Shown in pieces: positions 3,673 through 54,144 of a DNA stretch of 54,334 nucleotides. Location: contig CBFDTI010000003.1 in the NCBI GenBank assembly GCA_965612795.1, positions 1 to 54,334 on the forward strand, given 5' to 3'. Each line of letters starts with the position of its first letter. Position 1 is the stretch's first letter. The position numbers and the translations under genes are program-made. Under the pieces are notes generated by a model, which did not search any database, was not told the origin of the DNA, and saw only the letters and a program-made list of their open reading frames with translations. The stretch comes from an uncultured bacterium. GTDB taxonomy: Bacteria > Hydrothermota > UBA3073 > NMUJ01.

Positions 3673-3699
3673 TTGACGTCCACCTATATCTGCTATAAT
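3673..3699 (+). promoter_or_regulatory. Putative sigma70-type promoter TTGACG-N15-TATAAT (with extended -10 TG)
   Basis: TTGACG 3673-3678, TATAAT 3694-3699, upstream of the C26 hydrolase operon. Confidence 0.7.
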
Positions 3700-3723
3700 T
3701 CTTTTATAGCTAAGAGGGTGAAA

Positions 3724-4407
3724 ATGGTCATCATCGGCATAACATGTAAAAGTGACACCAAAAGTTTTTATTTACCGCGCCCATATGTGATGGCGGTCAC
3801 AGCTGCTGGTGGTACACCGTTGGTTTTACCACATGTGGACGGCACCTGTATCGATGAGCTATCTAACCTGCTGGATGGGTTGTTGCTTGCAGGTGGTGGC
3901 GACATACATCCGATGTTTTATGGAGGTACAGATTCTGACAAGCTCAAACGTGTCGACCCCACACGCGATCGTTTCGAACTCACATTGGTTAAGCGGTTCG
4001 CACGTACCGGTAAACCCATACTCGGTATATGTCGTGGTATGCAGGTGTTGAACGTAGCGTTTGGTGGCAACTTATATCATGATGTGGGTGAGCTCACCGA
4101 TGTGAACCACTGGCAGAAAGCACCCGAACATGAACCCACACATACGATAACATTGAAAGAGGGTACACTGTTGCACAAAATCATGGGCCAAACAACCCTT
4201 ATGGTGAATAGCTTCCATCATCAAGCAGTCAAAACCGTCGCGGATGGGTTCATCGTCTCTGCGTTGGCTGAGGATGGTATCATCGAGGCTATCGAACACC
4301 CCGATTATGGGTTTATGTTAGGTGTACAGTTTCATCCCGAATATATGTACGAAAGTGACCCCTTCAACAAACTATTTGCCGCATTTGTAGCCGCATGCAA
4401 AAGATGA
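3724..4407 (+). CDS. Gamma-glutamyl-gamma-aminobutyrate hydrolase-like peptidase C26 (class I glutamine amidotransferase; PuuD-like)
   Basis: LLLAGGGDIHP, ILGICRGMQ (catalytic Cys), VNSFHHQAV, GVQFHPE (His-Glu). Start set at ATG 3724 after gaggg RBS. Confidence 0.9.
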   Translation: MVIIGITCKSDTKSFYLPRPYVMAVTAAGGTPLVLPHVDGTCIDELSNLLDGLLLAGGGDIHPMFYGGTDSDKLKRVDPTRDRFELTLVKRFARTGKPILGICRGMQVLNVAFGGNLYHDVGELTDVNHWQKAPEHEPTHTITLKEGTLLHKIMGQTTLMVNSFHHQAVKTVADGFIVSALAEDGIIEAIEHPDYGFMLGVQFHPEYMYESDPFNKLFAAFVAACKR

Positions 4408-5573
4408 TACAGAGGTTAATCGCCGAGGTCGAGGATATACAAAAGTTGCGTGAGTTCAACGATGGTGGGGTCAGCATCTGTGAAGCCAAACTCAAAGTAC
4501 GCATTATTGACAGCATACTGAAAACCAAGCTACCCAGGGGTACGAAGGGTAAAACTGGTGTCATAGTACGTAGATGCATACATCACGTACCGAGATTGGG
4601 TGACCACATCGTACTCACAGAGGATGAGACTCGCAAGTTCATAAAAGCTGACGTTACTACCCGTAGAGTGCTACAGAACAGATTCGTACGTGTGGCGATA
4701 CTTGAGCCACTTGGTGCAAGGATCGGTTCACTGGCCTACAAACCGCGTGGAATGGATATCTTTGCACCGCGGCTGGACCTACAGAAGACGGGTTGGCTGT
4801 ATTATGGTGGTATACTTGATACGTTATCGTTTGATGATGTCACCAGCTTATGGAATAAAGAGTATAAACATACCGTCAAAGGATACGAATACAAAAAGGG
4901 TAAGCTTAAGCTATTGAAACACATATCCACGCTACGTGAGCTACCTGCTGTGTACATGGATTACTCCATAACCGTAGGCTATAAGCGGAAGCTGGATTTC
5001 GGTCACCACATCATGTTACCACGACATGGGTTGGGGCAACACAATATCGTATTTATGCCGTTGGGTGATAGGGTCGAACATCTACGGTATCGACGCCCTT
5101 TAGCACCATGGATAAGGCTACACGACTATTCTGGGCTAAAAGCTGGTGGGTTCATATACGTAGATGAGCAACGTGGCATCTGCTTATTATGTTGTGCTGC
5201 AGCTGATAAGATTGAAGTTGTAAGGATTAGCCCCCACCAGCAGGGGTTGACGGTTACGCTTATGTTCCAACGCAAGGAAGTGACACCCACCACCGTAGCC
5301 AAGTACAGGGTACTTTACCTTGTGGGTGAATCCTTCCATGTGGATAAGTATACGGTTGCAATCATTGCACGTAATGTGGTGGATAAAAAATTCATCTCCA
5401 TCGTACGTAGTGGTAAGACACCCTCGTACCTGTATCTATCGGTTCATGGTATGGACATAAAGCTGAAACTCTCACAGAAGACGTTACCAGGTATCGGCAC
5501 ACTCTACGTAGCAGAACATAAACCCATGTTGATGCCAACCGAAGTCAAAATCAAAGGGGTAACCTATGCGTAA
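4404..5573 (+). CDS. Hypothetical protein, possibly with a galactose-mutarotase-like supersandwich domain
   Basis: ATG 4404 overlaps the previous stop (ATGA). 'VLQNRFVRVAILEPLGARIGSLAYKPRGMDIF' resembles the N-terminal strands of aldose-epimerase/DUF5107-type folds. Overlaps the next gene. Confidence 0.55.
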   Translation: MIQRLIAEVEDIQKLREFNDGGVSICEAKLKVRIIDSILKTKLPRGTKGKTGVIVRRCIHHVPRLGDHIVLTEDETRKFIKADVTTRRVLQNRFVRVAILEPLGARIGSLAYKPRGMDIFAPRLDLQKTGWLYYGGILDTLSFDDVTSLWNKEYKHTVKGYEYKKGKLKLLKHISTLRELPAVYMDYSITVGYKRKLDFGHHIMLPRHGLGQHNIVFMPLGDRVEHLRYRRPLAPWIRLHDYSGLKAGGFIYVDEQRGICLLCCAAADKIEVVRISPHQQGLTVTLMFQRKEVTPTTVAKYRVLYLVGESFHVDKYTVAIIARNVVDKKFISIVRSGKTPSYLYLSVHGMDIKLKLSQKTLPGIGTLYVAEHKPMLMPTEVKIKGVTYA

Positions 5574-6775: not shown

Positions 6776-9589
6776 TTACCGCACCACTATAGCTTTACGA
6801 GTTACTTGTTGATCACCTGCACGTAGCTGTATAAAGTAGACGCCTGCTGGTACGTGGTTACCGGATGAGTTGGTACCATCCCACTCCACCTCGTATATAC
6901 CAGTACTTCGGGTAGCATCTACCAACTTACGTACGAGCCGACCACTCAAATCGTATATGTTGATCGTCACATGTACGTTTTCACCTATAATATGGTAAGC
7001 GATTGTTGTCCTATTATGGAATGGATTCGGCACGTTAGGGAATAGCTGCATAACGGTTGGTTTGGCCACGATACGTTCCTCCACCCCCGGTATTATCCTG
7101 CGTGCGACAAACTTCACATACCGTTGTTCGCCTCGCAGTAGATCGGGTTGCCCCTCATACCATACATACATGAGTGCAAAGTTATCGGTGATAACCACAT
7201 CGAGTGCATCTGTATCGATAACCTCAACACTATCCACACGCCATGGGAATAGCACAATGGGAGATCGGTACCCCCATTTACCGGTGTAACCTGGACGGCC
7301 GGTGCGATTCATAGTTATACGGAAGATTATGGTATCACGGTCGTCACCTGGTATCACTATCAGTTCTTTAGTGTAAAGCAACGTATCATACACAGCATCG
7401 TCAGGTATCCTTGCATCAAGTGCGGGATCACAATATATTGCGGCACCATCGAGGTCGTCAGGTTCACCAATCCCTGGTGTATTGTTGTCGAGATCAAACT
7501 TAAATACTTGGTTACCAAGATAGAAAGCCACAGGGAAGGAGTAATGATCCTGCCTACAGAAGTATGCCTTGGTAGCACCCAACTGATAACTATAAGGGCC
7601 TTCCAATATCACATACCCACAGTAGATGACAGCACCCCCATTACGTATCCATGCAGGTGCCATACAGTGTGGGCCAAATATCTGTGCAATGTTGCAGTTA
7701 CCTAACCCAAAGTATATCTTGGGGTTGGGCGAAACTATCGGTAAGGTATCATGTTCGTGTGTCTCACCGAACAGGAACCCGTAATCACTCGACCAAAAGT
7801 ACCCCTCCTCCCCAGGTGTTGGATAATGTAGCTGCCATACGTTATAGTTACCATGCCCACTGGTGAAGAATATATCAACTGAATCACCAAATATCAAACT
7901 ATCACCATTGAGCATACTCACCAGCCATGCAGTGCGATCGGTGGGTCCATCATCATACTGCACCGGCTGTATAGCATCCGGATACTTGATCCAATACCTG
8001 CCATAGGTTGCCTCACTGGTGGCTATACCCTGTGGGAAGTACCTCGCATCACAGCATGCGGTACCACCCAACACTGTACGTATCCATAGGGGTTGATTGC
8101 AGGTGACTAACTTCATTGCATCGGATGCATCACATCCGGTAACTATACCCCATATCGCATCACCGTACGGGTCGTCATCCAACATCCTGGTAAATGGCCA
8201 CACCTGCTCCTGTATAAATGATGGATCCGCCTCCTCCAGCTTACACACAAACGCTATGTAGTCCGGTCGATACTCGGCTACTTCATCGAGTATCGGCCAT
8301 ATAGTGGCTGAGTATGTGAACACCTCACCGTTATGCCGCTGTACTAATGCATCTACGACTGCAGCCCAGTCGGGATCGCTGAGTGTTGCCTCACTTACAA
8401 TTACCGCGTACCGATAAGTTGGTATCTCACGCTGATATATGGTAAAATAACCATCGGATGTATCTTCACCTGATAGTCCAGCGATATCGAACACCTTCAC
8501 CCGTACCATACATGTAGCTGATGGTGTGTTGGGTATCCTCCACCAGTAGCTACCGGGATTACCTTCTTGATAAGTTATAGGTACCCATGTAGCACCACCA
8601 TCTATTGAGTAATACAGTGAATCACCGGCTATAGCACCATTATCGGTAGCAGTCCACGTTATCTGGTAGACATCACCCGTACCCCATAGCTCACCACCGT
8701 TGGGTGATATCAGGTTAACCGTCGGCGGTATGGTATCTGGTACAATGGTGAAGTAACTATCTGATACATCCTCTCCCCTATTACCCCATGGATCGAATGC
8801 TACAACTTTCACCATACATAGGTCTGATGGTGTATTGGGTACCATCCACTCGTAACTGCCGGGGTTACCCATCATCCACGCCAGAGGTAACCAATTTGTA
8901 CCGCCGTCTGTTGTGTAATAGATTGAGTCCATCACCACCGTGCTAGTATCGTATGCGTACCAGGTTATGGAGTGTAGCTCACCCACACCCCATGCTTCAC
9001 CACCGTTGGGTGATATGACCTCAACCTCAGGTGGGGTAAACTCCTCACTCACCGGCATAAAGTAGAAATCGTCCACCCTTATCCAGCCATCATGTGTCGA
9101 CATACCCGCAGATGATGATAGATCCTCGAGAAATACCTCTACGGTTACAACCTCTCCCTTAAAGTCGGATACGTCCATAAACCGTTCTGTCCAGTCTATC
9201 TCCTCCGTGCTACCAGTACCTTCGTGATATTCCAGGTAGATAGTGTCACCTCCCTCGGTTATCAACCTAACACCCATTGCAGGTGCACGTCTATCCAACC
9301 AATACCTAATCCAATAATGTAACGTATCAGCGATAACTACCACGGCTTGCCTTATATAAGCGTAACGTGGTGTACCAGTGTTACCTGTTACATTCTCTAT
9401 CATCGCACAGTAATCACCCTGTATAGCTTCAGTATCCTGTAGTGTCACAGTAGGTGTAGGGGGGCCACCACCCAGCTCTACCTGCCAACCACCCTCGGTT
9501 TCGAAATCGCCATTAACAAATTGGCCTGCTGCGTTCACCCCGTATGTAAACAACAGCGCACCAAACATAAAGCAGATGAAACGTTTCAT
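6776..9589 (-). CDS. Large secreted protein: N-terminal beta domain, two Ig-like repeats, clan CD (gingipain/C25-like) cysteine-peptidase-like domain, FlgD-Ig/T9SS-like C-terminal domain
   Basis: Signal peptide; two 'SPNGGE.W' repeats; 'FFTSGHG' and 'GLGNCNIA' His/Cys dyad context; C-terminus 'PNPFH...IYDLSGRLVRKL...WDGTN..G..VPAGVYF'. Confidence 0.65.
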   Translation of the reverse strand: MKRFICFMFGALLFTYGVNAAGQFVNGDFETEGGWQVELGGGPPTPTVTLQDTEAIQGDYCAMIENVTGNTGTPRYAYIRQAVVVIADTLHYWIRYWLDRRAPAMGVRLITEGGDTIYLEYHEGTGSTEEIDWTERFMDVSDFKGEVVTVEVFLEDLSSSAGMSTHDGWIRVDDFYFMPVSEEFTPPEVEVISPNGGEAWGVGELHSITWYAYDTSTVVMDSIYYTTDGGTNWLPLAWMMGNPGSYEWMVPNTPSDLCMVKVVAFDPWGNRGEDVSDSYFTIVPDTIPPTVNLISPNGGELWGTGDVYQITWTATDNGAIAGDSLYYSIDGGATWVPITYQEGNPGSYWWRIPNTPSATCMVRVKVFDIAGLSGEDTSDGYFTIYQREIPTYRYAVIVSEATLSDPDWAAVVDALVQRHNGEVFTYSATIWPILDEVAEYRPDYIAFVCKLEEADPSFIQEQVWPFTRMLDDDPYGDAIWGIVTGCDASDAMKLVTCNQPLWIRTVLGGTACCDARYFPQGIATSEATYGRYWIKYPDAIQPVQYDDGPTDRTAWLVSMLNGDSLIFGDSVDIFFTSGHGNYNVWQLHYPTPGEEGYFWSSDYGFLFGETHEHDTLPIVSPNPKIYFGLGNCNIAQIFGPHCMAPAWIRNGGAVIYCGYVILEGPYSYQLGATKAYFCRQDHYSFPVAFYLGNQVFKFDLDNNTPGIGEPDDLDGAAIYCDPALDARIPDDAVYDTLLYTKELIVIPGDDRDTIIFRITMNRTGRPGYTGKWGYRSPIVLFPWRVDSVEVIDTDALDVVITDNFALMYVWYEGQPDLLRGEQRYVKFVARRIIPGVEERIVAKPTVMQLFPNVPNPFHNRTTIAYHIIGENVHVTINIYDLSGRLVRKLVDATRSTGIYEVEWDGTNSSGNHVPAGVYFIQLRAGDQQVTRKAIVVR
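8430..9034 (-). repeat. Two tandem Ig-like protein repeats of about 102 aa (306-nt period)
   Basis: PPEVEVISPNGGEAWGVGELHSITW...IYYTTDGGTNW...GSYEWMVPNTPS starts at 9034; PPTVNLISPNGGELWGTGDVYQITW...LYYSIDGGATW...GSYWWRIPNTPS starts at 8728. Confidence 0.85.
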
Positions 9590-10558: not shown

Positions 10559-10585
10559 TTGACACAGCTTTGCTTTCATTAATTT
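10559..10585 (+). promoter_or_regulatory. Putative promoter TTGACA-N15-TAATTT
   Basis: TTGACA 10559-10564, TAATTT 10580-10585, upstream of the 10604 CDS. Confidence 0.6.
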
Positions 10586-10603
10586 ACATGCATAGGGGCT
10601 GCA

Positions 10604-12688
10604 ATGTTATTCGCGATAATTTTGATATCCACATACGATACGCTAACCGTACGCTATGCTGAAGGTATCAAGGTTGATGGCAATGTAGAAGTTCAATGGT
10701 ATCAAGCGGATTCAACATTTGTCTATCGACAGTTCTCCCCGTATTACGATAGTATTAGCACCTACAGGACAGTAGTCAAATGCCTACAGGATAGGGGTAA
10801 CTTATACTTTTTGTTTGATATACACACTGGTGGTGAACAACCCGTCGTTAAGCTTGCAGGTGCTGAGGACAGGGTAACGGTTTACATTGACCCTATGGAC
10901 TCAAAAGTTATGGCATATGGGTTCAGTGTGACAGCATCCAACCAACGCATCGATTGGCTCGTGCTCGATGACGGTAGATGGAGCGATTACACGTGGGCTG
11001 GCGTGTGGGAGAGTGCCACACGTGTTTATCGGAATGGCACAGATAATCGGTTGGTGATCGAAATCAAGATACCGTTTAAGACACTGAGGTTCAGAAATGA
11101 TATAGCGGATTGGGGGATACAGTTTCGTGTGTATTTTCAGCGATATAAAGAAACAAATTATTGGGTGTTACCGGACCAACGTGAGGGGCTTAGGGTATCT
11201 CAATTCGGTACACTTGCGCACGTGAAACCCACAGTTGTGGGTTATGGTATAGAGATCTATCCGGTGGGGCTTACAAAACATACCTTGTATCGAGAAGAAG
11301 AGAAAACGATACCATGGGTGGGGTTAGACTTCACTTGGAAAATATCGCCTTCACTTACACTTAATGTTACCGGGTGGCCGGATTTTGCTGAAATAGAATC
11401 AGACCCCTTCAAGATGAGCCTCAGCAAGTACGAAATCTATTATAGTGAAAGACGACCGTTCTTCCTTGAAGGTAAGGAGATATTCGAGCCTTCCGGGTTT
11501 GGTATCGTGAAGCCTTTCTATTCACGTAGGGTGGGCCGTCGTATGCGTGACGGTACGGGTGAGGTGCCAATACTTGGTGGCCTCAAGCTGACTGGTAAAA
11601 CTCGTAGGTGGGAATTTGGCCTATTATCTGCATACACAGGGGATAAGTTCGGTGATTGGGATACCGCCTATGCTACCCTGTGGAACGTTATCCGCTACAA
11701 ACACTATATTTTTACGAATTCGGAATTTGGAGGTATGTTAGCCACACGTATGGATAAGGGCTCCTCTTACTACGTGGTAGATGTAGACGGTAGTTTGCGA
11801 TCGACCCACGATAACCTGACATATCAGGTGGTTGGCAACCTCAGCCGCTCATCAGCTGGTATCTTCGCCAGCTGCAGGGGTGAGAAACGGTTATCACAGG
11901 AATATACAGTGTTTATGCAATCCACATATACGGGTGAGGGGTTTGACATATCGCCGTTGGGTTATGCGACTACGTTCGCGGGTGATAGAAGTATCTTTCT
12001 GTTCCTCCATAGGATGAAGTTCATATCCAAGGGTAATCTCGACCGCTGGTCATACGGGTTAGGCTACGGTAGCAACAAAGAAGCTAACGAACCTTGGTGC
12101 CATGCTATGTATCTTAATGGTTACTTAGGATTCAGGAAGCCGTTCCCAATACGTGTGAACCTATCCATAGGGGGTGGCAGATTTTACGAATCCGGTACCT
12201 ACTTCTGGGGTAAATCACTAAACTGGAATGTTGGGCTAAAACCCAAACAATATAGCTTCCAGATAGGTGGTTACTATGGATATGGGTGGAACTATCGACG
12301 TAATTTACTCGCCTGGCAAGGTACAATGCGGTTTAGTGCTTATGTACCGTTTTTGGGGAGATTTTCGTTAAATCCGTTCGGCAATTTATGGGTGGAGTTG
12401 GACCCACACGGTAAGTTACTACAGGTTACGATGACGGCTTCGATACACTTCGATATCATCATCACACCTTACATGGATGTAACGATAGCAACCAACCCCG
12501 TCGCTGTGTATGAAAGTGGTAAGCTACAGCTTACACAGGGACGTATAGCATTATTCTACTCGTGGGAATTCAAACCCAAATCCAAGTTCTACTTAGTATG
12601 GAATACGCTCTACACACAAAATGGAAACGGTTGGCAACCTATCGAACAAATAGCGGCAATCAAGCTACGCTGGTTGTTCCTGTTTTAG
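10604..12688 (+). CDS. Outer-membrane protein with N-terminal CBM9/DOMON-like domain and DUF5916-type beta-barrel
   Basis: IKVDG..E..W, W...WESAT, EIKIPFKTLRF (CBM9-like); PDFAEIESD, ERRPFFLEG, FYSRRVG (DUF5916 motifs); C-terminal Phe. Confidence 0.75.
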   Translation: MLFAIILISTYDTLTVRYAEGIKVDGNVEVQWYQADSTFVYRQFSPYYDSISTYRTVVKCLQDRGNLYFLFDIHTGGEQPVVKLAGAEDRVTVYIDPMDSKVMAYGFSVTASNQRIDWLVLDDGRWSDYTWAGVWESATRVYRNGTDNRLVIEIKIPFKTLRFRNDIADWGIQFRVYFQRYKETNYWVLPDQREGLRVSQFGTLAHVKPTVVGYGIEIYPVGLTKHTLYREEEKTIPWVGLDFTWKISPSLTLNVTGWPDFAEIESDPFKMSLSKYEIYYSERRPFFLEGKEIFEPSGFGIVKPFYSRRVGRRMRDGTGEVPILGGLKLTGKTRRWEFGLLSAYTGDKFGDWDTAYATLWNVIRYKHYIFTNSEFGGMLATRMDKGSSYYVVDVDGSLRSTHDNLTYQVVGNLSRSSAGIFASCRGEKRLSQEYTVFMQSTYTGEGFDISPLGYATTFAGDRSIFLFLHRMKFISKGNLDRWSYGLGYGSNKEANEPWCHAMYLNGYLGFRKPFPIRVNLSIGGGRFYESGTYFWGKSLNWNVGLKPKQYSFQIGGYYGYGWNYRRNLLAWQGTMRFSAYVPFLGRFSLNPFGNLWVELDPHGKLLQVTMTASIHFDIIITPYMDVTIATNPVAVYESGKLQLTQGRIALFYSWEFKPKSKFYLVWNTLYTQNGNGWQPIEQIAAIKLRWLFLF

Positions 12689-14062
12689 TACGATCTGACC
12701 GCGCTTGATGACAGCCAGTATCTTGTTTATACCCATATCCACCACTGTGATATCGGCAACATAACCAGGTGCGAGCTTACCATATTCGGTCTCCATAAAG
12801 CATGCATATGCGGGGTATTCAGTGAACCCCAGTATTGCTTCGTCGTAGCTGATATTGAGCTCGGGATTGGGGTGGTGGGTTGCACATTTTATACCAAATA
12901 GCGGATCGATATTTGTCACAGGTGAGTCTGAACCGAACCCCACCTTTATGTTACGATCGAATACTTTACGGAATGGGTTCATATTCATTGCTTTGCTGTA
13001 ACCGAGCCGCTCAACGTAAAGATTGTGGAATACACCTTCGAAGGCAGGTTGCATGGATAACACTATCCCATGACGTGCAACCTGTTCGATCTGCTCGTCG
13101 GTTATACATTCGGCATGCTCGATCCTATGTCGATGTTGAGGCACTCTTTTGTAAGTATCCAACAGTTGACGGATGGCACGTTCACCTATTGCGTGCATCG
13201 CCACCTGTAACCCAGTTTCGGCTGCTTTGCGCACGAATTGTAGCAGCTCATCGTCCGTGAAATATAATATACCACAGGTATCGCTGTCATGATAGGGGGT
13301 ATCCATTGCTGCTGTATGTGAGCTTATTGAGCCATCCACCAGCATACAACCACCTATACGTGGTAAGCCGAGGTCAACAACCGACTCTACATCTCTTGTT
13401 TGCACGTATGGTATCACATCTATCGGTAGGTCATCCTTTAGCTTATCATAAATTTTGTATTCCCTTAAGTTACTGAATAGCCCACAGATTGTTGTCACCC
13501 CATGGTTTATGGCATAGTTGCAGGTCAACTTTATCGCCTGTGCGATTATATCGTCCCCCATAGAGGACTGGATTTTGTACCAGATGGGTTCAAACTCCTC
13601 GCCACGCAATACTTCAGCTGCTGACGTTATACCTAACCTCCTACGTGCAGCAGTGTTCATCACACACGAGTGTAGATCCTCACGGATCACAATTATTGAT
13701 TGTGTTCGTGACACAGTATCGAGCTCACTAGTGGTTGGATACCTCTTCTCACGTAACCTGTGGGGTGCCAACCCATACGCGATTAGTGGTTCATGGTGTA
13801 AGTTCATACTTAGTATTGATAGCACATCGTCGATACATGTGGCTGGTTTGAGGTTGGGATAAACCATCATCACGCCAGTGGTCACCACATGTACATGTGT
13901 ATCCCAAAACCCTGGCAATATATACGCATTGTCGAACGTTTTCACCTCCATATTGGGTGGAAGCTGTGACACGTTTGTCACATCGTATATCCTGTCACCA
14001 TCTATAATCACAGTATCGCGATCTGGATGGTTAAATATTTTGTTGCCCGTAATCGCATACAT
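12665..14062 (-). CDS. Amidohydrolase family 3 (YtcJ-like) metal-dependent hydrolase
   Basis: PGFWDTHVH, DGSISSHTAA, HAIGERA, HRIEHA, GSDSP. Start moved to ATG 14062 (MYAITG). Convergent 24-bp overlap with the 10604 gene. Confidence 0.85.
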   Translation of the reverse strand: MYAITGNKIFNHPDRDTVIIDGDRIYDVTNVSQLPPNMEVKTFDNAYILPGFWDTHVHVVTTGVMMVYPNLKPATCIDDVLSILSMNLHHEPLIAYGLAPHRLREKRYPTTSELDTVSRTQSIIVIREDLHSCVMNTAARRRLGITSAAEVLRGEEFEPIWYKIQSSMGDDIIAQAIKLTCNYAINHGVTTICGLFSNLREYKIYDKLKDDLPIDVIPYVQTRDVESVVDLGLPRIGGCMLVDGSISSHTAAMDTPYHDSDTCGILYFTDDELLQFVRKAAETGLQVAMHAIGERAIRQLLDTYKRVPQHRHRIEHAECITDEQIEQVARHGIVLSMQPAFEGVFHNLYVERLGYSKAMNMNPFRKVFDRNIKVGFGSDSPVTNIDPLFGIKCATHHPNPELNISYDEAILGFTEYPAYACFMETEYGKLAPGYVADITVVDMGINKILAVIKRGQIVLKQEQPA

Positions 14063-14651
14063 CACGTAATTTACATGTTTCACAAAGTGGCCGTATAGGC
14101 CGACATATGGATTTACCAAAATGTACCATTGCGGGGTTGAGTTTTATCCAATATTCCTTAGGGATTAGATGTTTGAGTTGGGTCTCGGTCTCCTCCGGTC
14201 GGCTCGTATGTACGATACCAAGTCTATTCGATATCCTATGTACATGCGTATCTACAGGTAGGGAAGGTTGCTCAAACCCAAACGCTATCACACAGTTAGC
14301 CGTTTTGCGACCTACACCTGGAAGTTTAAGTAGCTCATCGATATCGCATGGTACCTCGCCATTGTATTCGTTCTTCAGTATCTCAGCGATCGCTTTTATC
14401 TTGACAGCTTTCACCCTGTAGAAGCCTACAGGTTTTATGAGTTCGGCTATCTCAGTTATGTCAGCGGTTGCAAGTTCATCTATTGATCTAAACCGCTTAA
14501 ATAATCGATTAGCTGCTGCGTGGGTAACTTCATCCTTTGTCCTGTGTGATAGTAAAGTAGCGATCAGTACTTGCCAGGGTTCGCGTTTACGTCTATGTAT
14601 GGGATATGAAGCAAAGAACTGCACAATACGTGCAAGCTTCGCATCCATCAA
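14031..14651 (-). CDS. nth: Endonuclease III
   Basis: HhH LPGVGRKTA, catalytic VDTHVHR, FCL cluster C-x6-C-x2-C-x5-C (CRPIRPLCETCKLRDVC). Confidence 0.95.
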   Translation of the reverse strand: MMDAKLARIVQFFASYPIHRRKREPWQVLIATLLSHRTKDEVTHAAANRLFKRFRSIDELATADITEIAELIKPVGFYRVKAVKIKAIAEILKNEYNGEVPCDIDELLKLPGVGRKTANCVIAFGFEQPSLPVDTHVHRISNRLGIVHTSRPEETETQLKHLIPKEYWIKLNPAMVHFGKSICRPIRPLCETCKLRDVCDYGQQNI

Positions 14652-15922: not shown

Positions 15923-15928
15923 CTATTT

Positions 15929-15955: not shown

Positions 15956-15995
15956 CCACAAACTTCCTAAGTTGGCTAACCAACCGTGGATTAGC

Positions 15996-19525: not shown

Positions 19526-19532
19526 CTCAATA

Positions 19533-39228: not shown

Positions 39229-39249
39229 TATAACCTCCTCTTGCTGCAC

Positions 39250-43657: not shown

Positions 43658-46312
43658 TTAAAATTCTACTGATAACCCTATCTGTATTTGACGTGGTTCG
43701 GAATAGAAATCCGGCCGTATGAACCAGTTGGGATCAGCATCACCACCAGCCGTACGTTGTTCAAGCGTGTAAGTAGCTCTACCTGTGTCTTCAAATACCC
43801 CATATTCGTTACGTATGTCGAACAGATTGAAGATCTTGACAAGCAATGCCACCGCTAAGCGTCCAAGTTTAACTCTATAGGTATAGTTGAAATCAACATC
43901 AACCGTCGGCGGGCGACGTTCACAGTTCTCTTTAAGTCCCGTGTATAAAGTGCGACCTACACGCGTACCCTGTACCACTCTTGGAGTGTATGGTAGTCCT
44001 GACCCATACTTGAATATGAAGCTGGTTTCAAAGTTTGTGCCCCCAAATATTAGCGTTACGTTAAGTGTATGACGTTGATCCCAATCCAACGGAACAACCT
44101 CCTTACGTGGCTCTCTACCTGCACGTGCGTCGTTGAATGCATCTTCGGGGTTGGACGATGTACCTTCAGCTATTTGGTAAGTATAAGCCAAGCTGAACCC
44201 GAAATTGCTGCCACCGATACGATATTTGTCGAACGAAAACGTTATACCACGTACATTCGCATAGTCCTTATTTACATACTTCACATATTTGGTACCTGGT
44301 ATCACGGTGTTAATCTCGGGTGAGGTACCCACCCAACCTCTTATGTCACGATAGAATAGAGTAATATCCATACGCATATCGTTACGGAACCCCTGTTGTA
44401 GGCCTATCTCGTACATTACCGTACGTTGGGCATCAAGGTCTGCATTACCTAAGATTGTGCTTATACCGGAGGTTTTAGGTACCTCAAATTCGGGATTTTT
44501 GTAGAGGTATTCGAATTGCGGTATCTGTAAGAAGTGCCCATAAGAGAAGTGTATAACACCCTTATCGGTTATCGGGTAAGCTATACCCAAGCGTGGGCTG
44601 ATCTGCTTTTTGGGGTTAGCTTTCTTCCACCAGATCTTTTCACGTTCTTCGAGCGTCATCTGTTGATGTTCGGGACGCCATGGATCCAATATGTTAGGGT
44701 CGGCTGGGTCACGAAGTACTACGCCATCGGGTTCGAAGTAGTCGAACCTCACCCCTACGTTTACTATCATGTCTTTAAACTCTATCTTATCTTGTACATA
44801 GCATGAAGCTAAATATGGGTGTTTATGATAACGATTATGGTTAGGTGCGGTGAAGTCAGGTACGTAGGGTTCGAAAGGTACAACTTCGACACCTTCAACA
44901 GTTTTGGGGATGATCTCAAACTCATGCATGAACAAGTCGTATAGCTGCAGTTCGAACCCTGCCTTCATTTCATGTGAGGGCCTCACCTGTGAGGTAAGGT
45001 CAACCCTCAACGTGGTGGTTTTGCTCCATCGATAGAAATGCTGCATCTTAGTACCCGCATGTGCAAACGAGTATGGAGGTGCAGTAAGTGAGTCAGGATG
45101 TACGTAACGTGGATCGTACGGATCCTCATACACGTAGTGCTTATAGCTGGAGTAGAAATGCGCAATATTAAAGGTATAGAAGGTTTTGGGGCTTATCGTA
45201 TGCGTAAGTGTAAGCTGATGATTGTACCCAGTTTTGAACCGCTTCCAGTCGCCGTCTGGATTGTATTTGAAGTAATGATCGTATTCCTTGTAGTTGATGC
45301 GATTGGCGAGATACGCGTAGCTGAGATTCACACCCTTGGTAATCTGGTAAAATAGTTTACCCTGAAAGAACAGCTTACGATAGTAGTTCATAGGCACAAT
45401 GCGGTTATCGCCTAGCTCACCGGTGGGTAAGAATTTACGTATACCATATAGCCATCCATCATTGTAGTAGTAACGTGAGGTTAAGAAGAACGTCAGGTTT
45501 TTGGTGAAGAGCGGTCCCGATAGTGTGAAACGCACGTTTTTGTTTTGGAATGGGTTAAACTTATTCAACCCCGTAAACTTAGTATCAGTAGTGTAGTAAT
45601 CAGCCAACCATACCACGAAGTTACCTGAGAACTCATCACTACCCTTCTTAGTGACTATGTTTACCACGCCTGACATCGCCTGCCCATATTCGGCATTGAA
45701 TGTACCGCTCACTACTTGTAGCTCCTGTATAGCGGAGTTGTCCACCTCAACCGCTATATCACCAGAGTAAGGGTCGGTAACTGAGATACCATCTATCATA
45801 TAGGCAACCTCACCGTAGCGACCACCCCGTATGTGACCTTTGACAACACCTGCTTGTAGATCGAGTAGCTCATAGAATGTTTCAACCGGCATCACTTCTA
45901 TATCGCGAGACTTAACGATAGATAGGCTGGAGGTTAGGTCACGTCGTATGATTTTACGTTCGGCGACTACGACGATTTCGCCCAACTCCAGCACGGTAGG
46001 GGTGAGTTCAAAATTTTGCACCGTAGTGAAATCCGCCGATACGCGTACACCTTCCACACGCATACGTTGGTAACCCATCATAGAAGCGACAAGCGTATAT
46101 TCGCCAGGTGGTACATTGAGTATGAAGTAGTAGCCGTTGGAATCAGTAGCCGCACCCAGGTGAGTACCTTCAACTATCACGTTTGCGAGGGCGAGTGGTT
46201 TACCGGTTTCGCGATCGATAACTCTACCGGTGATCTTACCGGTGACGCCTGCAAATAGAAATGTTGTAAGTAAGTATCCCACGGTAAGAAAAATGGGAAT
46301 TAACCGCTTCAT
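43658..46312 (-). CDS. TonB-dependent receptor (carboxypeptidase-regulatory-like N-domain, plug, barrel)
   Basis: TGKITGRVID..TG.PL..ANV, HIRGGR..EVAYMIDG, SGTFNAEYG.AMSGVVNIVTK, SPRLG.AYP, N.F...PRQIQIGLSVEF (terminal Phe). Confidence 0.92.
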   Translation of the reverse strand: MKRLIPIFLTVGYLLTTFLFAGVTGKITGRVIDRETGKPLALANVIVEGTHLGAATDSNGYYFILNVPPGEYTLVASMMGYQRMRVEGVRVSADFTTVQNFELTPTVLELGEIVVVAERKIIRRDLTSSLSIVKSRDIEVMPVETFYELLDLQAGVVKGHIRGGRYGEVAYMIDGISVTDPYSGDIAVEVDNSAIQELQVVSGTFNAEYGQAMSGVVNIVTKKGSDEFSGNFVVWLADYYTTDTKFTGLNKFNPFQNKNVRFTLSGPLFTKNLTFFLTSRYYYNDGWLYGIRKFLPTGELGDNRIVPMNYYRKLFFQGKLFYQITKGVNLSYAYLANRINYKEYDHYFKYNPDGDWKRFKTGYNHQLTLTHTISPKTFYTFNIAHFYSSYKHYVYEDPYDPRYVHPDSLTAPPYSFAHAGTKMQHFYRWSKTTTLRVDLTSQVRPSHEMKAGFELQLYDLFMHEFEIIPKTVEGVEVVPFEPYVPDFTAPNHNRYHKHPYLASCYVQDKIEFKDMIVNVGVRFDYFEPDGVVLRDPADPNILDPWRPEHQQMTLEEREKIWWKKANPKKQISPRLGIAYPITDKGVIHFSYGHFLQIPQFEYLYKNPEFEVPKTSGISTILGNADLDAQRTVMYEIGLQQGFRNDMRMDITLFYRDIRGWVGTSPEINTVIPGTKYVKYVNKDYANVRGITFSFDKYRIGGSNFGFSLAYTYQIAEGTSSNPEDAFNDARAGREPRKEVVPLDWDQRHTLNVTLIFGGTNFETSFIFKYGSGLPYTPRVVQGTRVGRTLYTGLKENCERRPPTVDVDFNYTYRVKLGRLAVALLVKIFNLFDIRNEYGVFEDTGRATYTLEQRTAGGDADPNWFIRPDFYSEPRQIQIGLSVEF

Positions 46313-46336: not shown

Positions 46337-46363
46337 AAAATAATGTCAGCTCGATATGGTCAA
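46337..46363 (-). promoter_or_regulatory. Putative TBDR-operon promoter TTGACC-N15-TATTTT
   Basis: Minus strand reads ttgacc atatcgagctgacat tatttt; agggggt RBS downstream. Confidence 0.6.
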
Positions 46364-47028: not shown

Positions 47029-47056
47029 TTGACCTGCACATGGGTTAAGTTAATTT
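47029..47056 (+). promoter_or_regulatory. Putative rsmI-operon promoter TTGACC-N16-TAATTT
   Basis: TTGACC 47029-47034, TAATTT 47051-47056, ATG 10 nt downstream with no SD. Confidence 0.45.
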
Positions 47057-47066: not shown

Positions 47067-47828
47067 ATGGGCAAACCGGCAAAACCTAAAGATAAAGAAG
47101 TTGAGGAGCTTGCACCTGGCCTTTACGTGGTGGGTACACCTATAGGTAACCTCAAAGATATAACGTTGAGAGCAATCGAAACCTTAAAATCCGTAGATGT
47201 GATCGCATGCGAAGATACTCGTATAAGCCAGAAGCTGCTCAACCATTACGGTATAAGTAAGCCACTCATATCGTATCATGAACATAACAAGGAGGAGCGT
47301 AGCCACGAGATCATACGTATGATAGAAAGAGGTAAACGTGTAGCATTGATATCAGATGCGGGTATGCCAGGTATATCGGATCCTGGGTTCTACATCATAC
47401 GTGAGATGCGTCGACATGGGTTACAGGTTACGGTGATACCTGGGCCGACTGCTTTTGTAGCAGCTTTGGTGGTGTCAGGCTTACCGACAGATAAGTTTGT
47501 GTATGAGGGGTTCCTACCACGACGTGAGGGTAGACGCAGAAAGCGGTTAGAGCAATTGAAGGACGAACCCCGCACGATAGTGTTTTACGAATCACCATAT
47601 AGGGTGGTGAGGTTACTGAACACTTTACTGGAGATATTGGGTGACCGTCACGTATTTATAGCACGTGAGTTGACGAAGAAGTTTGAACAGTTCATCTATG
47701 GTAAGATATCGGAGGTTATCGAACATTTTGACAAACAACCGCCAAAAGGTGAGTTCGTCGTTATTGTTGAAGGTAAAGCACAATGGGAGAAATCTTCGAA
47801 AAAGGGCGTAAGCTCATACGATGGATAG
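47067..47828 (+). CDS. rsmI: 16S rRNA (cytidine1402-2'-O)-methyltransferase
   Basis: LYVVGTPIGNLKDIT.RA, ACEDTR, SDAGMPGISDPG, FYESPYR, ARELTKKFE, KGEFV. Confidence 0.96.
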   Translation: MGKPAKPKDKEVEELAPGLYVVGTPIGNLKDITLRAIETLKSVDVIACEDTRISQKLLNHYGISKPLISYHEHNKEERSHEIIRMIERGKRVALISDAGMPGISDPGFYIIREMRRHGLQVTVIPGPTAFVAALVVSGLPTDKFVYEGFLPRREGRRRKRLEQLKDEPRTIVFYESPYRVVRLLNTLLEILGDRHVFIARELTKKFEQFIYGKISEVIEHFDKQPPKGEFVVIVEGKAQWEKSSKKGVSSYDG

Positions 47829-50072: not shown

Positions 50073-51117
50073 GCGTGCGCCATCACGTGTGTGTCTGTTT
50101 GGTGAGCACCAGGACTATCTGGGGTTACCAGTTATTGCACAGGCTATAGATCTGTACTTTGAGATAAAAGCGACACCACGCGATGATACGATATTCCATA
50201 TCGAGAAACCCGACACCGGTGAGGTAGAGGAGTTCGATCCCACCAAACCCATCAAGTACACGAAAAGACGTGATTACCTCAAAGCAGCTGTCAAGGTGTT
50301 GAAGCGTGACCTCACCGTGAAGTTCGATAAGGGGTATAACTTTGTGCTACACAGCGATATACCAATAGGTGCGGGTTGTGGTAGCTCATCTGCTATGTTA
50401 GTCGCATGGATACGATTGCTGCTTAAGCTTACAGATAGCCCGTTTAAGGAGCTACCATATCACATAGCGAGGTTGGCATATAAGGCTGAAGTGATAGAGT
50501 TTCGTGAACCCGGTGGGATGATGGATCACTACACAGCGGCGATGGGTGGGTTGCTATTTCTCGATTTCAGGCATTATCCAGTGAAAACGGAACGGCTACC
50601 GAAACCTGTCGATGGTATTGTGTTGGTAGATACAGGTGAACGCAAAGATACGTTGAAGGTACTACGTGAGGTACGTGTGATAACGGAGAGGGGTGTGAAG
50701 CTATTGGAGAAAATTGACCCAAAGTTTAAACTACAGGAAACATCTCGAGAGGGGATCGAACTTCAGCTCAAAAGGCTACCGAAAAGGGTTGGCGACGTTA
50801 TACGTTTACAATTATGTAATCGCGATATTACACTTAAAGCATATGAGATGCTGAAGTCTGGTAGCTGGAAGCCAACCGAATTAGGTGAGCTACTAACCCA
50901 ACATCACCACAACCTACGTGATATGGGGGTATCAACGAGAACCATCGATGAGTTGCTAGAACTTGCACTCTCACACGGTGCGTTGGGTGGTAAACTTAAC
51001 GGCAGTGGAGGTGGTGGCACGTTCTTCGTGTATGCACCCGGTAAGGAAGAGGAGATAGCTGAACTTATGCGTGAGAAAGGTGTCTCCTCCTACATCGTAA
51101 ATCCAGCAGTGGATTAA
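50062..51117 (+). CDS. GHMP-family kinase (galactokinase-like)
   Basis: APSRVCLFGEHQDY, IPIGAGCGSSSA ATP loop, GGMMDH, GGKLNGSGGGG; start set at ATG 50062. Confidence 0.85.
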   Translation: MQVERAPSRVCLFGEHQDYLGLPVIAQAIDLYFEIKATPRDDTIFHIEKPDTGEVEEFDPTKPIKYTKRRDYLKAAVKVLKRDLTVKFDKGYNFVLHSDIPIGAGCGSSSAMLVAWIRLLLKLTDSPFKELPYHIARLAYKAEVIEFREPGGMMDHYTAAMGGLLFLDFRHYPVKTERLPKPVDGIVLVDTGERKDTLKVLREVRVITERGVKLLEKIDPKFKLQETSREGIELQLKRLPKRVGDVIRLQLCNRDITLKAYEMLKSGSWKPTELGELLTQHHHNLRDMGVSTRTIDELLELALSHGALGGKLNGSGGGGTFFVYAPGKEEEIAELMREKGVSSYIVNPAVD

Positions 51118-52349
51118 CCCCTCTCCTCCTTGTATTTTCTCAACACATCAAGCGTATAGTCGATATCATATGGTGTATGGTCAGCATTTATCTGAAATCT
51201 TATCGTTTCATCACCTTTGGGTACAACAGGATAGTTGAGCCCTGTTGCAAGTATACCGTTATCGATCAGATAGTTTACCAAGTCGGCTGTTTTCTGCGTA
51301 TCACGTATAAGCAGCGGTACTATTGGGTGATCGCTCTGTATTGTTTCGTAACCTAAGCGGGTGACACCATCACGAAAACGTTTTGCCAATCCACGTAACC
51401 TTTTCAGTAGTTGCCGACCACGCTCACTATCGAGTATATCGATTGCTTTTAATGCGGTGGCTGCCTCAGCGGGTGTGAGTGGATTAGAGTATATGTAAGT
51501 TATCGCCGTCTCTTTAAGGTAATTGATAACCGTTTCTGATGACACAACGTAACCACCGTTGACACCAAACGCCTTACCAAGTGTACCAACGAGGATATCG
51601 ACACCATCTGCGTGCGTGTACTCCTCGGTACCTCTGCCGGTTTCACCAAATGCACCAACACCGTGGGAATCATCTACCGCAAGTATTATGTTCTCAGGAA
51701 ACTTATCATCGTAACGCTTGATGATCTCTGACATTTTATCCAATGGCGCATAGTCGCCACGCATGGAGAATACACCATCTGTCACAACAATCAAGCGATC
51801 AGCTTTACCGATACACTCCTTTATCTTGGCTTCAAAATCGTCCATATCGAGATGCTTGTAGATTTTCTTATCTTTCGGTCTTGCCAACCTTATGCCGTTT
51901 ATGATACAGTTATGGTTTAACTCATCACTTAGCACGATCGTCTCCTTTGTTATTAAAGACACAAGTACGGCAACCATCGCCGAGTATGCTGCACTGAATA
52001 TCATGCCATCCTCACGGTTATGGAAGCGTGCCAATCGTTTCTCAAGCGCACGATGTGGCTCAAACGTACCGCTGATAAATCTTACTGCACCAGGGCCGAC
52101 ACCAAACTCGCGTGCCGTTTTTTCTTCAACTTCTATCATCTCATCAAGCAGCGATAGCCCCAGATATGAGTTGGAATTCATCCTTATGAACTCCTTATCA
52201 CCAAACCCCTTCAGGAAATACCGTGGCCCTTTGTCACCCTCGGGTTTCTTCACCTTGGTGATAATGAACTCCTTACCTTTGGCTCTACCAGATGCTTTTA
52301 GTTCATCCAACTCATTTGCTAACACTTTTTCGAGCTTAGTTAACCCCAT
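51114..52349 (-). CDS. kbl: PLP-dependent alpha-oxoamine synthase, probably 2-amino-3-ketobutyrate CoA ligase
   Basis: NSYLGL, AVRFISGT, SDELNHNCIING.RL, TDGVFSM.GD, DDSHGVG, GTLGKAFG (PLP Lys), YPVVPKG. Its stop shares TTAA with the convergent GHMP kinase stop. Confidence 0.75.
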   Translation of the reverse strand: MGLTKLEKVLANELDELKASGRAKGKEFIITKVKKPEGDKGPRYFLKGFGDKEFIRMNSNSYLGLSLLDEMIEVEEKTAREFGVGPGAVRFISGTFEPHRALEKRLARFHNREDGMIFSAAYSAMVAVLVSLITKETIVLSDELNHNCIINGIRLARPKDKKIYKHLDMDDFEAKIKECIGKADRLIVVTDGVFSMRGDYAPLDKMSEIIKRYDDKFPENIILAVDDSHGVGAFGETGRGTEEYTHADGVDILVGTLGKAFGVNGGYVVSSETVINYLKETAITYIYSNPLTPAEAATALKAIDILDSERGRQLLKRLRGLAKRFRDGVTRLGYETIQSDHPIVPLLIRDTQKTADLVNYLIDNGILATGLNYPVVPKGDETIRFQINADHTPYDIDYTLDVLRKYKEERG

Positions 52350-52370: not shown

Positions 52371-52397
52371 ACTCTATTGAGTTTATGGATTTGTCAA
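52371..52397 (-). promoter_or_regulatory. Putative promoter TTGACA-N15-TAGAGT
   Basis: Minus strand reads ttgaca aatccataaactcaa tagagt; aggagg RBS downstream. Confidence 0.55.
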
Positions 52398-52401: not shown

Positions 52402-53217
52402 TTAGCCTTTTCTACCACTACGCATGTAGGTTTCGATTATCGCACGTTGTGCGAACACAAATAGTATTATTATAGGTAAAGCAGCTATCGTTGATGCAGC
52501 CGCCAACAGCGTATAGTTGGTACTCTCCTCGTGTAGGAAGTAGCCCAACCCCACCTGCACCGTACGCATCCATGGGCTATTTGTCATCACCAATGGCCAT
52601 ATGAAGCTGTTCCAGCTGCTGACAGCTGAAAATATTGCAATAGCGGCAAGTGCAGGTTTGACCAACGGTAACGCTATACGCCAGAGTAACATGAAATGAT
52701 TACATCCATCGATAAGGCCTGCCTCATACAGGTCACGTGGTATGCTCTTAAAGTATTGACGTAGAAGGAAGATCGAAAATGTACTCGCTATCCACGGTAT
52801 GATGAGCGCTTTATAAGTGTCGATCCAACCCAACCTCGTAAGTATCAGATAATCCGGCACTATGTACACCGGCATGGGTATCATCATAGTTGCCAGTAAT
52901 AATAGAAATATACCACCCCTGCCGGGGAAGTTGAGCACCCCCAACGCATAACCTGCAAGTGCAGCCGTCACCAACACACCTACCGTACTACCTATGGTGA
53001 TTATGATACTGTTGAGGAAGTATCGGCCAAACGGTGCACTACGCCATGCGTGTACAAAGTTTTGCCACACCAAGTTATGTGGTATCCATGTGGGTGGAAA
53101 CTTTATCGCCTCAAGCGGTGTCTTAAGTGCGGTGGTCACCATCCAGTAAAATGGTAACACCATAAAAAACGCTATAATCGATAACCCCAGATAGATAGCT
53201 AAAATCCTAAACTTCAT
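52402..53217 (-). CDS. Carbohydrate ABC transporter permease (MalG/UgpE type)
   Basis: PFYWMVTTALK, YFLNS, EAA-loop 'IPRDLYEAGLIDG', SWNSFIWPL; ATG 53217 (alternative GTG 53226). Confidence 0.9.
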   Translation of the reverse strand: MKFRILAIYLGLSIIAFFMVLPFYWMVTTALKTPLEAIKFPPTWIPHNLVWQNFVHAWRSAPFGRYFLNSIIITIGSTVGVLVTAALAGYALGVLNFPGRGGIFLLLLATMMIPMPVYIVPDYLILTRLGWIDTYKALIIPWIASTFSIFLLRQYFKSIPRDLYEAGLIDGCNHFMLLWRIALPLVKPALAAIAIFSAVSSWNSFIWPLVMTNSPWMRTVQVGLGYFLHEESTNYTLLAAASTIAALPIIILFVFAQRAIIETYMRSGRKG

Positions 53218-54112
53218 AGTATACACGGCTTTCGATCACCCTACGTTGTAGGATCGTCATCGATATAAGTATTACAAACAATATGATCGATAGCGCACTC
53301 GCGTATCCATAACGTGAGAAGTTGAACGCATTCTCATAGATGTAATACACAAGTACGTTGGTGGTACCCAGCGGCCCACCAGGTGGTGGCCCCGTTATCA
53401 ACCACACAGGTGCAAATATCTGGAACGACAGTATCGTGCTAATTATCAGCAGATAAAATGTGGTAGGCGACAGCAACGGAAACGTTATCCTCCAGAACTT
53501 AACCCAACCCGTCGCACCATCTATGACAGCAGCCTCGTAATATTCACGTGGTATGGTTTGCAATCCCGCAAGGAAGATCACCACATCATAGCCGAGCGTC
53601 TTCCATACCATCAACACAATTATCGATACAAGTGCAAGGCTGGGCCCACCCGGGAACACGCTACGCCATTCGTTTAGCCATCCCAATCTCGGTAGATGTA
53701 GGATTGATAATATTCCATTGGCGAGCCCAAACCGCGGATGGTAGATCCAACGCCATACCACGGATATAGCCACTATTGAGGTGATTATCGGTAGAAAGTA
53801 CATTGCAAGATATACATTACGTCCCTTGGGTAGGGCATTCAACATCAATGCCACAGCTAGGGAGATTGCCATCGTCAATGGCACCGTACCCATGGAGTAC
53901 CATAATGTATTCTTAAGGCTTTGCCAGAACCTGAAATCCTGAAGTATCAACCCATAGTTTCTGAGCCCAATAAACCGCTCAGCACCTGCGATCCCCCATC
54001 GGAACATGCTCACCCTCAATGCATAGAAGATGGGTATAAAATGGAACGTCAACAGCACCACCAATGCTGGCAGTAGGTACAAGTAGGGAGCCCACCGGTT
54101 GCGGGTTGACAT
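53207..54112 (-). CDS. Carbohydrate ABC transporter permease (MalF/UgpA type)
   Basis: YLYLLPAL, FIGLRNY, FLAGLQTIPREYYEAAVIDGA (EAA loop), ITFPLLSPT, YGYASA. Confidence 0.92.
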   Translation of the reverse strand: MSTRNRWAPYLYLLPALVVLLTFHFIPIFYALRVSMFRWGIAGAERFIGLRNYGLILQDFRFWQSLKNTLWYSMGTVPLTMAISLAVALMLNALPKGRNVYLAMYFLPIITSIVAISVVWRWIYHPRFGLANGILSILHLPRLGWLNEWRSVFPGGPSLALVSIIVLMVWKTLGYDVVIFLAGLQTIPREYYEAAVIDGATGWVKFWRITFPLLSPTTFYLLIISTILSFQIFAPVWLITGPPPGGPLGTTNVLVYYIYENAFNFSRYGYASALSIILFVILISMTILQRRVIESRVYYEV

Positions 54113-54117
54113 AATTA

Positions 54118-54144
54118 AAGATACGTAACGTAATGGGTGGTCAA
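54118..54144 (-). promoter_or_regulatory. Putative promoter TTGACC-N15-TATCTT, 5 nt before the permease ATG (leaderless)
   Basis: Minus strand reads ttgacc acccattacgttacg tatctt taatt ATG. Confidence 0.55.

Follow-up and report, generated by a model that had tools for sequence, protein, structure and literature searches.

We analysed the promoter-like hexamer pairs between the genes of a 54,334-nt contig (C3, hereafter the window) from the genome, designated G000, of an uncultured hot-sediment bacterium of candidate division WOR-3. An earlier note on this DNA had listed ten intergenic sites in which a TTGAC or TTGAA hexamer (-35 box) stands exactly 15 nt from a TAnnnT hexamer (-10 box). Direct reading of the sequence bore out all ten, on the strands claimed, and none has a TAnnnT at 17 nt. 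On the plus strand, TTGACG-N15-TATAAT (3673-3699) is followed by a Shine-Dalgarno sequence and an ATG 24 nt past the -10 box, and TTGACA-N15-TAATTT (10559-10585) precedes the open reading frame (ORF) 10604-12688. TTGACA-N15-TATTTT (19586-19612, plus) has an in-frame ATG 10 nt past the -10 box, and TTGACA-N15-TAAGAT (22324-22350, plus) has GGAGG and an ATG 22 nt past it, at the head of an ORF of fewer than 100 amino acids. On the minus strand, the ATG lies 6 nt past the -10 box of TTGAAA-N15-TATTTT (15929-15955; ORF 14648-15922), 7 nt past that of TTGACG-N15-TAAATT (19533-19559; ORF 18635-19525), which is divergent from the 19586-19612 site, and 5 nt past that of TTGACC-N15-TATCTT (54118-54144; ORF 53207-54112); the mRNAs of these three ORFs are probably leaderless. 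The remaining minus-strand sites are TTGACT-N15-TAAATT (39250-39276), before a 697-704-amino-acid protein with a C-terminus like that of a type IX secretion system sortase, TTGACC-N15-TATTTT (46337-46363), before an 884-amino-acid SusC/RagA-like protein, and TTGACA-N15-TAGAGT (52371-52397), before ORF 51114-52349. The 27-mer of the 46337-46363 site has an identical copy in G051, a genome of the same genus. Two plus-strand sites fit at 16 nt, namely TTGCAT-N16-TATTTT (27766-27793), before yidC (27800-29353), and TTGACC-N16-TAATTT (47029-47056), before ORF 47067-47828; these two, and three weak sites at 15 nt (538, 26773 and 46390), also match their earlier description.

Within the window, the pattern TTGAC-N16-TANNNT, equivalent to a spacer of 15, occurred nine times against 2.74 expected, and nine was reached in 1 of 100 dinucleotide shuffles. 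Each of the nine is placed between long ORFs or intrudes no more than 4 nt into the end of an ORF. At spacer 17 there were two matches against 2.54 expected, both within long ORFs. An Rfam search of the window returned no matches.

We then counted the two-block motif across the whole source genome (1.42 Mb in 128 contigs, 99.5% complete, 0.08% contaminated, GC 44.8%). Without reference to any annotation, TTGACn-Nx-TAnnnT occurred 205 times at x = 15, 113 times at 16 and 77 times at 17, the remaining spacings from 8 to 25 giving 46-97 each and the reversed spacer-15 pattern, used as a control, giving 51. For upstream regions, we called 1286 crude ORFs by a greedy longest-ORF rule, with the start chosen by Shine-Dalgarno match, which yielded 800 regions of at least 40 nt (134.8 kb). 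Spacers of 15, 16 and 17 were represented there by 121, 51 and 19 sites, respectively, where 200 first-order Markov simulations gave an expectation of 3.0 ± 1.5 (maximum 8 to 10). When every 5-mer at every gap upstream of TAnnnT was scanned de novo, TTGAC at spacer 15 ranked top with 13.5-fold enrichment. TTGACn-N15-17-TAnnnT was present in 169 of 732 upstream regions of at least 60 nt. The earlier note had proposed this genome-wide search as the test that could refute it through a mode at 17; the mode is 15, with an excess over background of about 40-fold. The 15-bp spacing is thus confirmed genome-wide, and much more strongly than the window alone could show. The spacing of sigma70-type promoters, by comparison, is 17 ± 1 bp, and a 15-bp spacing is generally regarded as poor for E. 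coli RNA polymerase.

The position of the sites relative to genes was then used to place them against transcription starts. In G000, 16 of 46 tRNA genes are preceded by TTGAnn-N15 to N18-TAnnnT, the gap from the end of the motif to the mature 5' end being 7-13 nt and in most cases 7-8 nt; nine of the spacers are of 15, five of 16, one of 17 and one of 18. Many G000 tRNAs are apparently transcribed from within 1-2 nt of their mature 5' ends. Among the N15 sites, 18 of 124 lie within 9 nt of a start codon, and the most frequent separations of -10 box and start codon are 6 nt (nine cases) and 8 nt (four cases), which indicates leaderless mRNAs starting at the ATG. Many G000 genes look leaderless, the minus-strand sites 15929-15955, 19533-19559 and 54118-54144 being the examples in the window. 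Judged by these tRNA 5' ends and leaderless start codons, TAnnnT is in its normal register, at about -12 to -7. Since both anchors agree on this, it would be the -35 box that has moved, to about -33 to -28.

The earlier note had called the promoters housekeeping-type, and the genes they precede agree with this. Tandem TTGACC-N15-TACATT and TTGACT-N16-TATATT sites lie about 170-220 nt before the 16S gene of the rRNA operon, TTGACA-N15-TATTTT precedes rplL-rpoB, and TTGACA-N15-TAATTT precedes an operon of htrA and a sigma factor gene; together with the tRNAs, these are sites at 15 or 16 before core genes. The -35 box is TTGACA-like, with A as the sixth base in 49% of G000 sites, and the three fixed positions of the -10 box after TTGAC are T (0.66), A (0.53) and T (0.64). 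Most -10 boxes of G000 read TAttTT, and G stands before TTGAC in 41% of its sites. The rpoB and rpoC genes of G000 lie on separate contigs (C18:3126-6617 and C31:7065-10994), each of which continues past the gene, and a TTGCCA-N16-TATATT site belongs to rpoC itself; rpoB and rpoC stand side by side in the WOR-3 genomes G001, G028, G040 and G008.

To determine how widely the 15-bp spacing is distributed, we compared N15 sites with their control in 272 WOR-3 genomes and counted N15, N16 and N17 sites in a 51-genome WOR-3 sample. The observed/control ratio for N15 reached 4.0-4.9 only in G000, in G051 and G052 of the same genus, and in G001, of a sister family in the same order. The next-best count was 29 against a control of 9, and family f27 showed a weak excess of about 2-fold. 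The N15 excess is thus present in all four genomes of the order and, at comparable strength, in none of the 268 others, in line with the lineage-specific trait that the earlier note had assumed. In the 51-genome sample, only G000 (205/113/77 at N15/N16/N17) and G001 (524/138/168) peak at 15. Families f4, f7, f10, f11 and f17 peak at 17, for example G028, of the same class as G000 (59/97/436), and families f3, f5, f8, f9 and f12-f16 peak at 16, for example G041 (21/390/173) and G017 (57/552/122). Two genomes, G032 and G048, gave no spacer signal in the counts at 15, 16 and 17. A 399-kb sample of G045 (3.3 Mb in all) gave 52 sites at spacer 16 and 28 at spacer 17, the background being about 16. 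The contrast is sharpest with a full TATAAT: TTGACn-Nx-TATAAT occurs 26 times at 15, six times at 16 and never at 17 in G001 (400 kb of 2.2 Mb), and never at 15, twice at 16 and 26 times at 17 in G028 (256 kb of 2.1 Mb). G028 carries a TGTG extended -10 element and G001 has none. Spacers of 15 also mark the tRNA promoters of G001, whose -10 boxes stop 7-8 nt short of the tRNA. These results demonstrate that the modal spacer is labile within WOR-3 and that 15 is its extreme, confined to one order.

We next examined the sigma factors. The RpoD_Cterm profile found a long RpoD frame of 512-669 amino acids in all 50 other sampled WOR-3 genomes and a second, short sigma factor (about 265-323 amino acids) in 43 of them. 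In G000 it found a 275-amino-acid sigma factor only, and tblastn with the long RpoD of G001 matched no other gene than this one. Only a short sigma factor was found in G051 and G052, whose assemblies are 66% and 87% complete. The gene immediately after dnaG is rpoD in G001, G028 and G040; downstream of the G000 dnaG (C89) come an overlapping, unrelated 215-amino-acid ORF and a convergent gene, with no rpoD there. The absence of the gene from the genus and the changed dnaG context suggest that rpoD was lost in this genus, where the short sigma factor would read the N15 promoters. One sigma54 and one partial extracytoplasmic function (ECF) type are the further sigma factors of G000. As the only one found that is neither ECF nor sigma54, the 275-amino-acid protein must, by this reasoning, read the N15 promoters, and it probably directs housekeeping transcription. 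The unusual primary sigma factor that the earlier note had postulated is supported in that the genus lacks the long RpoD of all 50 other sampled WOR-3 genomes and retains this short protein.

The 275-amino-acid sigma factor starts at region 1.2 and comprises regions 1.2, 2, 3 and 4, with no region 1.1. It scores 184 bits against a cut-off of 354 for the group 1 RpoD model TIGR02393; its best scores are with RpoS and RpoD models, below all curated RpoD, RpoS and RpoH cut-offs. Region 1.1, a long non-conserved region and a position after dnaG, which characterize group 1 sigma factors, are all missing from it. Region 4.2 looks canonical (SRERVRQI..ALRKLR). The gene is 99% identical to genes in two public WOR-3 metagenome-assembled genomes (MAGs), and among its closest relatives beyond the phylum is the short Bacteroidota primary sigma factor (39-44% identity). 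A quick tree unites the long RpoDs in a single clade with a Shimodaira-Hasegawa-like approximate likelihood ratio (SH-aLRT) support of 100, and the short sigma factors of G000 and G001 group with those of their class (SH-aLRT 87). The short sigma factor is encoded directly after htrA in 12 of 12 WOR-3 genomes examined, G000 included (L001:31-2977, L222-L233). It is followed by an M23-peptidase-like gene in G000 and G001, and in G002 and G005 it follows hsp20-x-htrA; the hsp20-like gene heading the operon suggests an ancestral stress role. At the 12 loci, no autoregulatory N15 promoter was found before the htrA-short-sigma operon in genomes of the 16 or 17 type, where N16 or N17 sites stand instead.

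It is very improbable that the motif pair is not a promoter but a repeat family or a transcription-factor site, or that the missing rpoD is an assembly gap. The genome is a 128-contig MAG, and metatranscriptome contigs cannot show transcript starts, both of which leave room for such an explanation. The spacer sequences, however, differ from site to site, so the sites are not copies of a repeat family. They are also oriented towards genes, at short and constant distances, and are found ahead of tRNAs and rRNA. As for an assembly gap, a long rpoD is absent from all three assemblies of the genus, whose completeness is 99.5%, 87% and 66%, and another ORF occupies the dnaG-rpoD junction.

Four metatranscriptome runs, from one study and one sample, contained 9-18% of the sampled words of window positions 15001-25000, and the matching contigs represent a strain 95-99% similar. 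The first base of one contig is at 19633, some 14 nt beyond where the plus-strand 19586 promoter is predicted to start transcription, and another contig spans the minus-strand 15955 promoter; we took both as neither support nor contradiction. The points where collinearity between contigs and window breaks down coincide exactly with three intergenic promoter regions (about 10502, 15969-15980 and 19562-19584), and one contig skips positions 10560-12696.

Taken together, we consider it probable that the sites function as housekeeping promoters in a WOR-3 lineage whose preferred spacing shifted from 16-17 to 15 bp, with a canonical -35 box (TTGACa) and a -10 box in canonical register, and that the long RpoD was lost in the genus, leaving the 275-amino-acid sigma factor as reader. 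What the data show directly is the pair of motifs with a mode of 15 bp, where the pair lies with respect to tRNA 5' ends and start codons, its confinement to a single order, and which sigma factors the genomes encode. On this proposal, the distance between the boxes would have contracted from 16-17 to 15 bp in the order, which would put the -35 box at about -33 to -28. In the genus, the canonical long RpoD would have disappeared, and the 275-amino-acid protein encoded downstream of htrA would remain as the sole group-1/2-like sigma factor. The holoenzyme would hold its -10 and -35 reading heads about 2 bp closer together, or more rotated, than in other bacteria, through changes in sigma, the core or both. 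In the sister family, to which G001 belongs, either the divergent long RpoD or the short sigma factor may read the N15 promoters.

Several observations weigh against this interpretation. The start register is derived from tRNA ends and start codons, and the gene calls are our own crude ORFs. All genomes are MAGs, and assemblies cannot prove the absence of rpoD. A shortened sigma linker was considered as the cause and found no support: the linker between regions 3.2 and 4.1 of the short sigma factor is 2 (G000) or 3 (G001) amino acids shorter than in long RpoDs, but the 2-residue shortening also occurs in the short sigma factors of G040, G050, G022, G045 and G008, genomes that peak at 16 or 17. 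In G000 this linker is also 2 shorter than in the SigA chains of Bacillus, Staphylococcus and Clostridioides in the PDB; Firmicutes SigA chains led the PDB matches of the short sigma factor, and no Bacteroidota sigma factor ranked among them. A short sigma factor as such is not a sufficient cause either, since the Gemmatimonadota genome G055, which has only short sigma factors, peaks at 17 (400 kb of its 5.0 Mb held 44 such sites, with background at about 12), so that the rule that a short sigma entails a short spacer is refuted. This chromosome (L254-L273) encodes two short sigma factors and no long RpoD, as in Bacteroidota, and its promoters read TTGACn-N17-TAnnTT.

The RNA polymerase core was compared as well. 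The earlier note had suggested looking for insertions or deletions in sigma and the RpoB flap; when G000 and G001 were set against G028, G040 and G008, no indel peculiar to the 15-bp genomes turned up in the flap tip, and the changes next to the flap-tip helix were limited to conservative substitutions. The indels common to G000 and G001 are confined to a generally variable insertion after the flap and to the termini. Measured against alignment columns with at least 90% conservation across 27 other WOR-3 genomes, both G000 and G001 depart at 5 of 162 such columns in the C-terminal part of rpoB and at 13 of 445 in rpoC. Among these departures are K>R and T>S/A, which flank the start of the flap-tip helix, and E>D in the N-terminal KPETINYRT motif of the beta' subunit. 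These substitutions are conservative and could reflect thermoadaptation. In the long RpoDs, no residue of the C-terminal 285 amino acids separates the 16 type from the 17 type (13 versus 6 sequences); the two types share no residue at just one column, a variable one in the linker, and their majority states agree throughout. With no separating column, the spacer mode can evidently change without a visible change in sigma. Thus, of the earlier proposal of a primary sigma factor or RNA polymerase with shortened geometry, the unusual sigma factor stands, and an altered geometry of sigma2-sigma4 on the beta flap is no more than a candidate, given a flap tip without such an indel, a linker shortening common to relatives that peak at 16 or 17, and G055 at 17. 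Sigma, the polymerase core and DNA topology are all candidates for the cause of the 15-bp spacing.

A further point on the same side is that G001 keeps a full-length long RpoD and has promoters of RpoD-like character, with C before TTGAC in 49% and A at -8 in 71% of sites, so the 15-bp rule may have arisen with RpoD or the core, before the sigma switch. A at -8 is also the rule in the 17-type G028 (95%), and T takes its place in the short-sigma-only G000 (66%) and G055 (57%); C before TTGAC likewise occurs in G028 (79%) and G055 (52%). This promoter flavour suggests a two-step history, in which the N15 promoters of G001 may still be read by the divergent long RpoD. In a rival account, the 15-bp optimum would have arisen in the ancestor of the order through the long RpoD, the core or an accessory factor, and the short sigma factor would have inherited an N15 landscape when rpoD was lost, as consequence and not cause. 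We regard this as possible but rather unlikely. It draws on the single, tight, RpoD-like N15 class of G001, which has both sigma factors (tttttC before TTGACA, and TAtAAT), and on the long RpoD of G001, the most divergent branch of its clade (0.82 in the quick tree versus 0-0.44 for the others), with a changed region 3.0 and two extra linker residues. In family f8, moreover, a long RpoD alone reads a 16-bp mode, no second sigma factor having been found at E≤1e-30, which indicates that the spacer preference of long RpoD is evolvable. The substitutions beside the flap-tip helix and in the beta' motif, common to G000 and G001, also fit. On the other hand, the G001 linker is longer by these two residues, not shorter, no core indel was found, and either sigma factor may be the active one in G001; relaxed selection on a sigma factor heading for loss explains the long branch equally well.

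The third candidate, DNA topology, would leave the polymerase geometry unchanged. A chromosome that is less negatively, or even positively, supercoiled, as proposed for these thermophiles with reverse gyrase, would have overtwisted spacers, and the best-aligned length would fall by 1-2 bp. Full-length reverse gyrase is encoded in both 15-bp genomes, G000 (C59:3527-6988) and G001 (C4:82901-86113), in none of eight other sampled genomes of the class, and in 7 of 51 in the phylum sample. Its restriction to G000 and G001 within the class sample points to a (hyper)thermophilic lifestyle. The thermodynamic model described in PMC9303308 links superhelicity to preferred spacer length, with a superhelical change of about 0.06 equivalent to one spacer nucleotide and relaxed DNA favouring short spacers, and the modes of 16 and 17 among families without a diagnostic sigma change are compatible with such an effect. 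By the same figure (PMC9303308), however, a 2-bp shift would require positively supercoiled DNA, and gyrA and gyrB are encoded alongside reverse gyrase in G000 and G001. Reverse gyrase as a sufficient cause is ruled out, because f11 and f13, two families that also carry it, show modes of 17 and 16, respectively. Overall, we judge the topological explanation improbable.

We return to the favoured interpretation, a shift of spacing in the order with loss of long RpoD in the genus, and compare it with known systems. Canonical sigma70/sigmaA promoters (TTGACA-N17-TATAAT) have the same two hexamers, the same -10 register relative to the inferred start and an A/T-rich stretch upstream of the -35 box, as seen in G001, and relatives of the same class such as G028 are fully canonical, TGTG extended -10 included. 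The 15-bp order differs in its modal spacer, in the complete absence of TATAAT sites at 17 from 400 kb of G001, in lacking the extended -10 TG and, in G000, in its TAttTT. The boxes are of the sigma70 type, and the spacer is the only element of the sigma70-promoter definition from which they depart. Promoters of group-3 sigma factors (the sigma28/FliA class) combine a short sigma factor with a spacing of about 15 bp, but the G000 boxes are housekeeping TTGACA/TAnnnT serving rRNA, tRNA and ribosomal-protein genes, and the G000 sigma factor has region 1.2. In 49 genomes with mapped transcription start sites, the median spacer was reported as 17 bp in each, with 99.2% of promoters at 16-18, and was described as "essentially fixed" (10.64898/2026.09.23.753901, a 2026 preprint); a 2025 paper models 17 as the optimum (PMC12641261).

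Bacteroidota offer the closest parallel on the protein side. Like G000, they have a short primary sigma factor without region 1.1 as the only RpoD-like sigma, and in the Bacteroidota genomes G053 and G056 only short sigma factors were found. They also prefer T at -8/-7 of the -10 box. The spacer optimum in Bacteroidota is 19. Their sigmaABfr consensus is given as -33 TTTG and -7 TAnnTTTG (PMC7366714, PMC2483708), and the spacing in Flavobacterium as TTG-N17-23-TANNTTTG (10.1101/172254). G000 differs in both boxes: the terminal G of the -7 box is missing, the two bases after TAnnnT being A/T-rich with 12-13% G, and in place of TTTG the full TTGAC is conserved, usually preceded by G or A and by T in only 8%. 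Strong Shine-Dalgarno sequences further distinguish G000. Our own search for TTG-Nx-TAnnTTTG gave no spacing signal in a Saprospiraceae genome (400 kb of 3.8 Mb) or in whole-genome counts. For Chlorobaculum tepidum, another lineage of the Fibrobacteres-Chlorobi-Bacteroidetes (FCB) group, RpoD has been described as clustering with the Bacteroidetes sigma factor and using a -33 box with a -6 box TA[ATC][ATC][AT]T (10.1101/172254). The resemblance lies in the -10-like TAnnnT without the Bacteroidetes G, close to the start; the text of that study states no 15-bp rule, and it gives spacer length only in a figure. We found no literature treating WOR-3 together with sigma factors and promoters and, among the papers listed, no mention of a 15-bp spacer or of a lineage-wide rule to that effect, although per-genome supplementary spacer tables could hold exceptions.

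Other features of the window include type IX secretion signatures in three minus-strand ORFs, at 6776-9589, 37135-39249 and 43658-46312, in the form of a Por_Secre_tail sorting domain, a PorU-like C-terminus and a SusC/RagA-like N-terminus; these are consistent with an FCB-group affiliation. The minus-strand ORF 15996-18638 encodes an 880-amino-acid protein that joins a Ser/Thr protein kinase domain (residues 7-263) to a UvrD/PcrA-type helicase (284-877).

A 17-bp spacer is treated as near-constant among bacteria, and promoter predictors hard-code a window of 16-18 bp; such tools would be expected to miss most promoters in the 15-bp genomes. For Aquificota, the ProFinder preprint, which applies a gate of 16-18 bp, reports promoter lists that are 86% incomplete. 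The WOR-3 class studied here offers a graded natural series from 17 through 16 to 15, which makes it testable whether the sigma linker, the core flap and zipper, or DNA superhelicity sets the optimum. The genus would also be a second, independent case, beside Bacteroidota, of a bacterium without a long RpoD. In its strongest form, the proposal is that one order reset the spacing to 15 bp for essentially all its housekeeping promoters, and that one genus within it discarded RpoD and runs on a 275-amino-acid sigma factor from a stress-type htrA operon, with a holoenzyme geometry unseen in any studied bacterium; we see the chances of this as evenly balanced. With the near-universal 17 replaced by 15 and the standard housekeeping sigma factor apparently lost in the genus, this order and genus represent a natural test case for promoter geometry.

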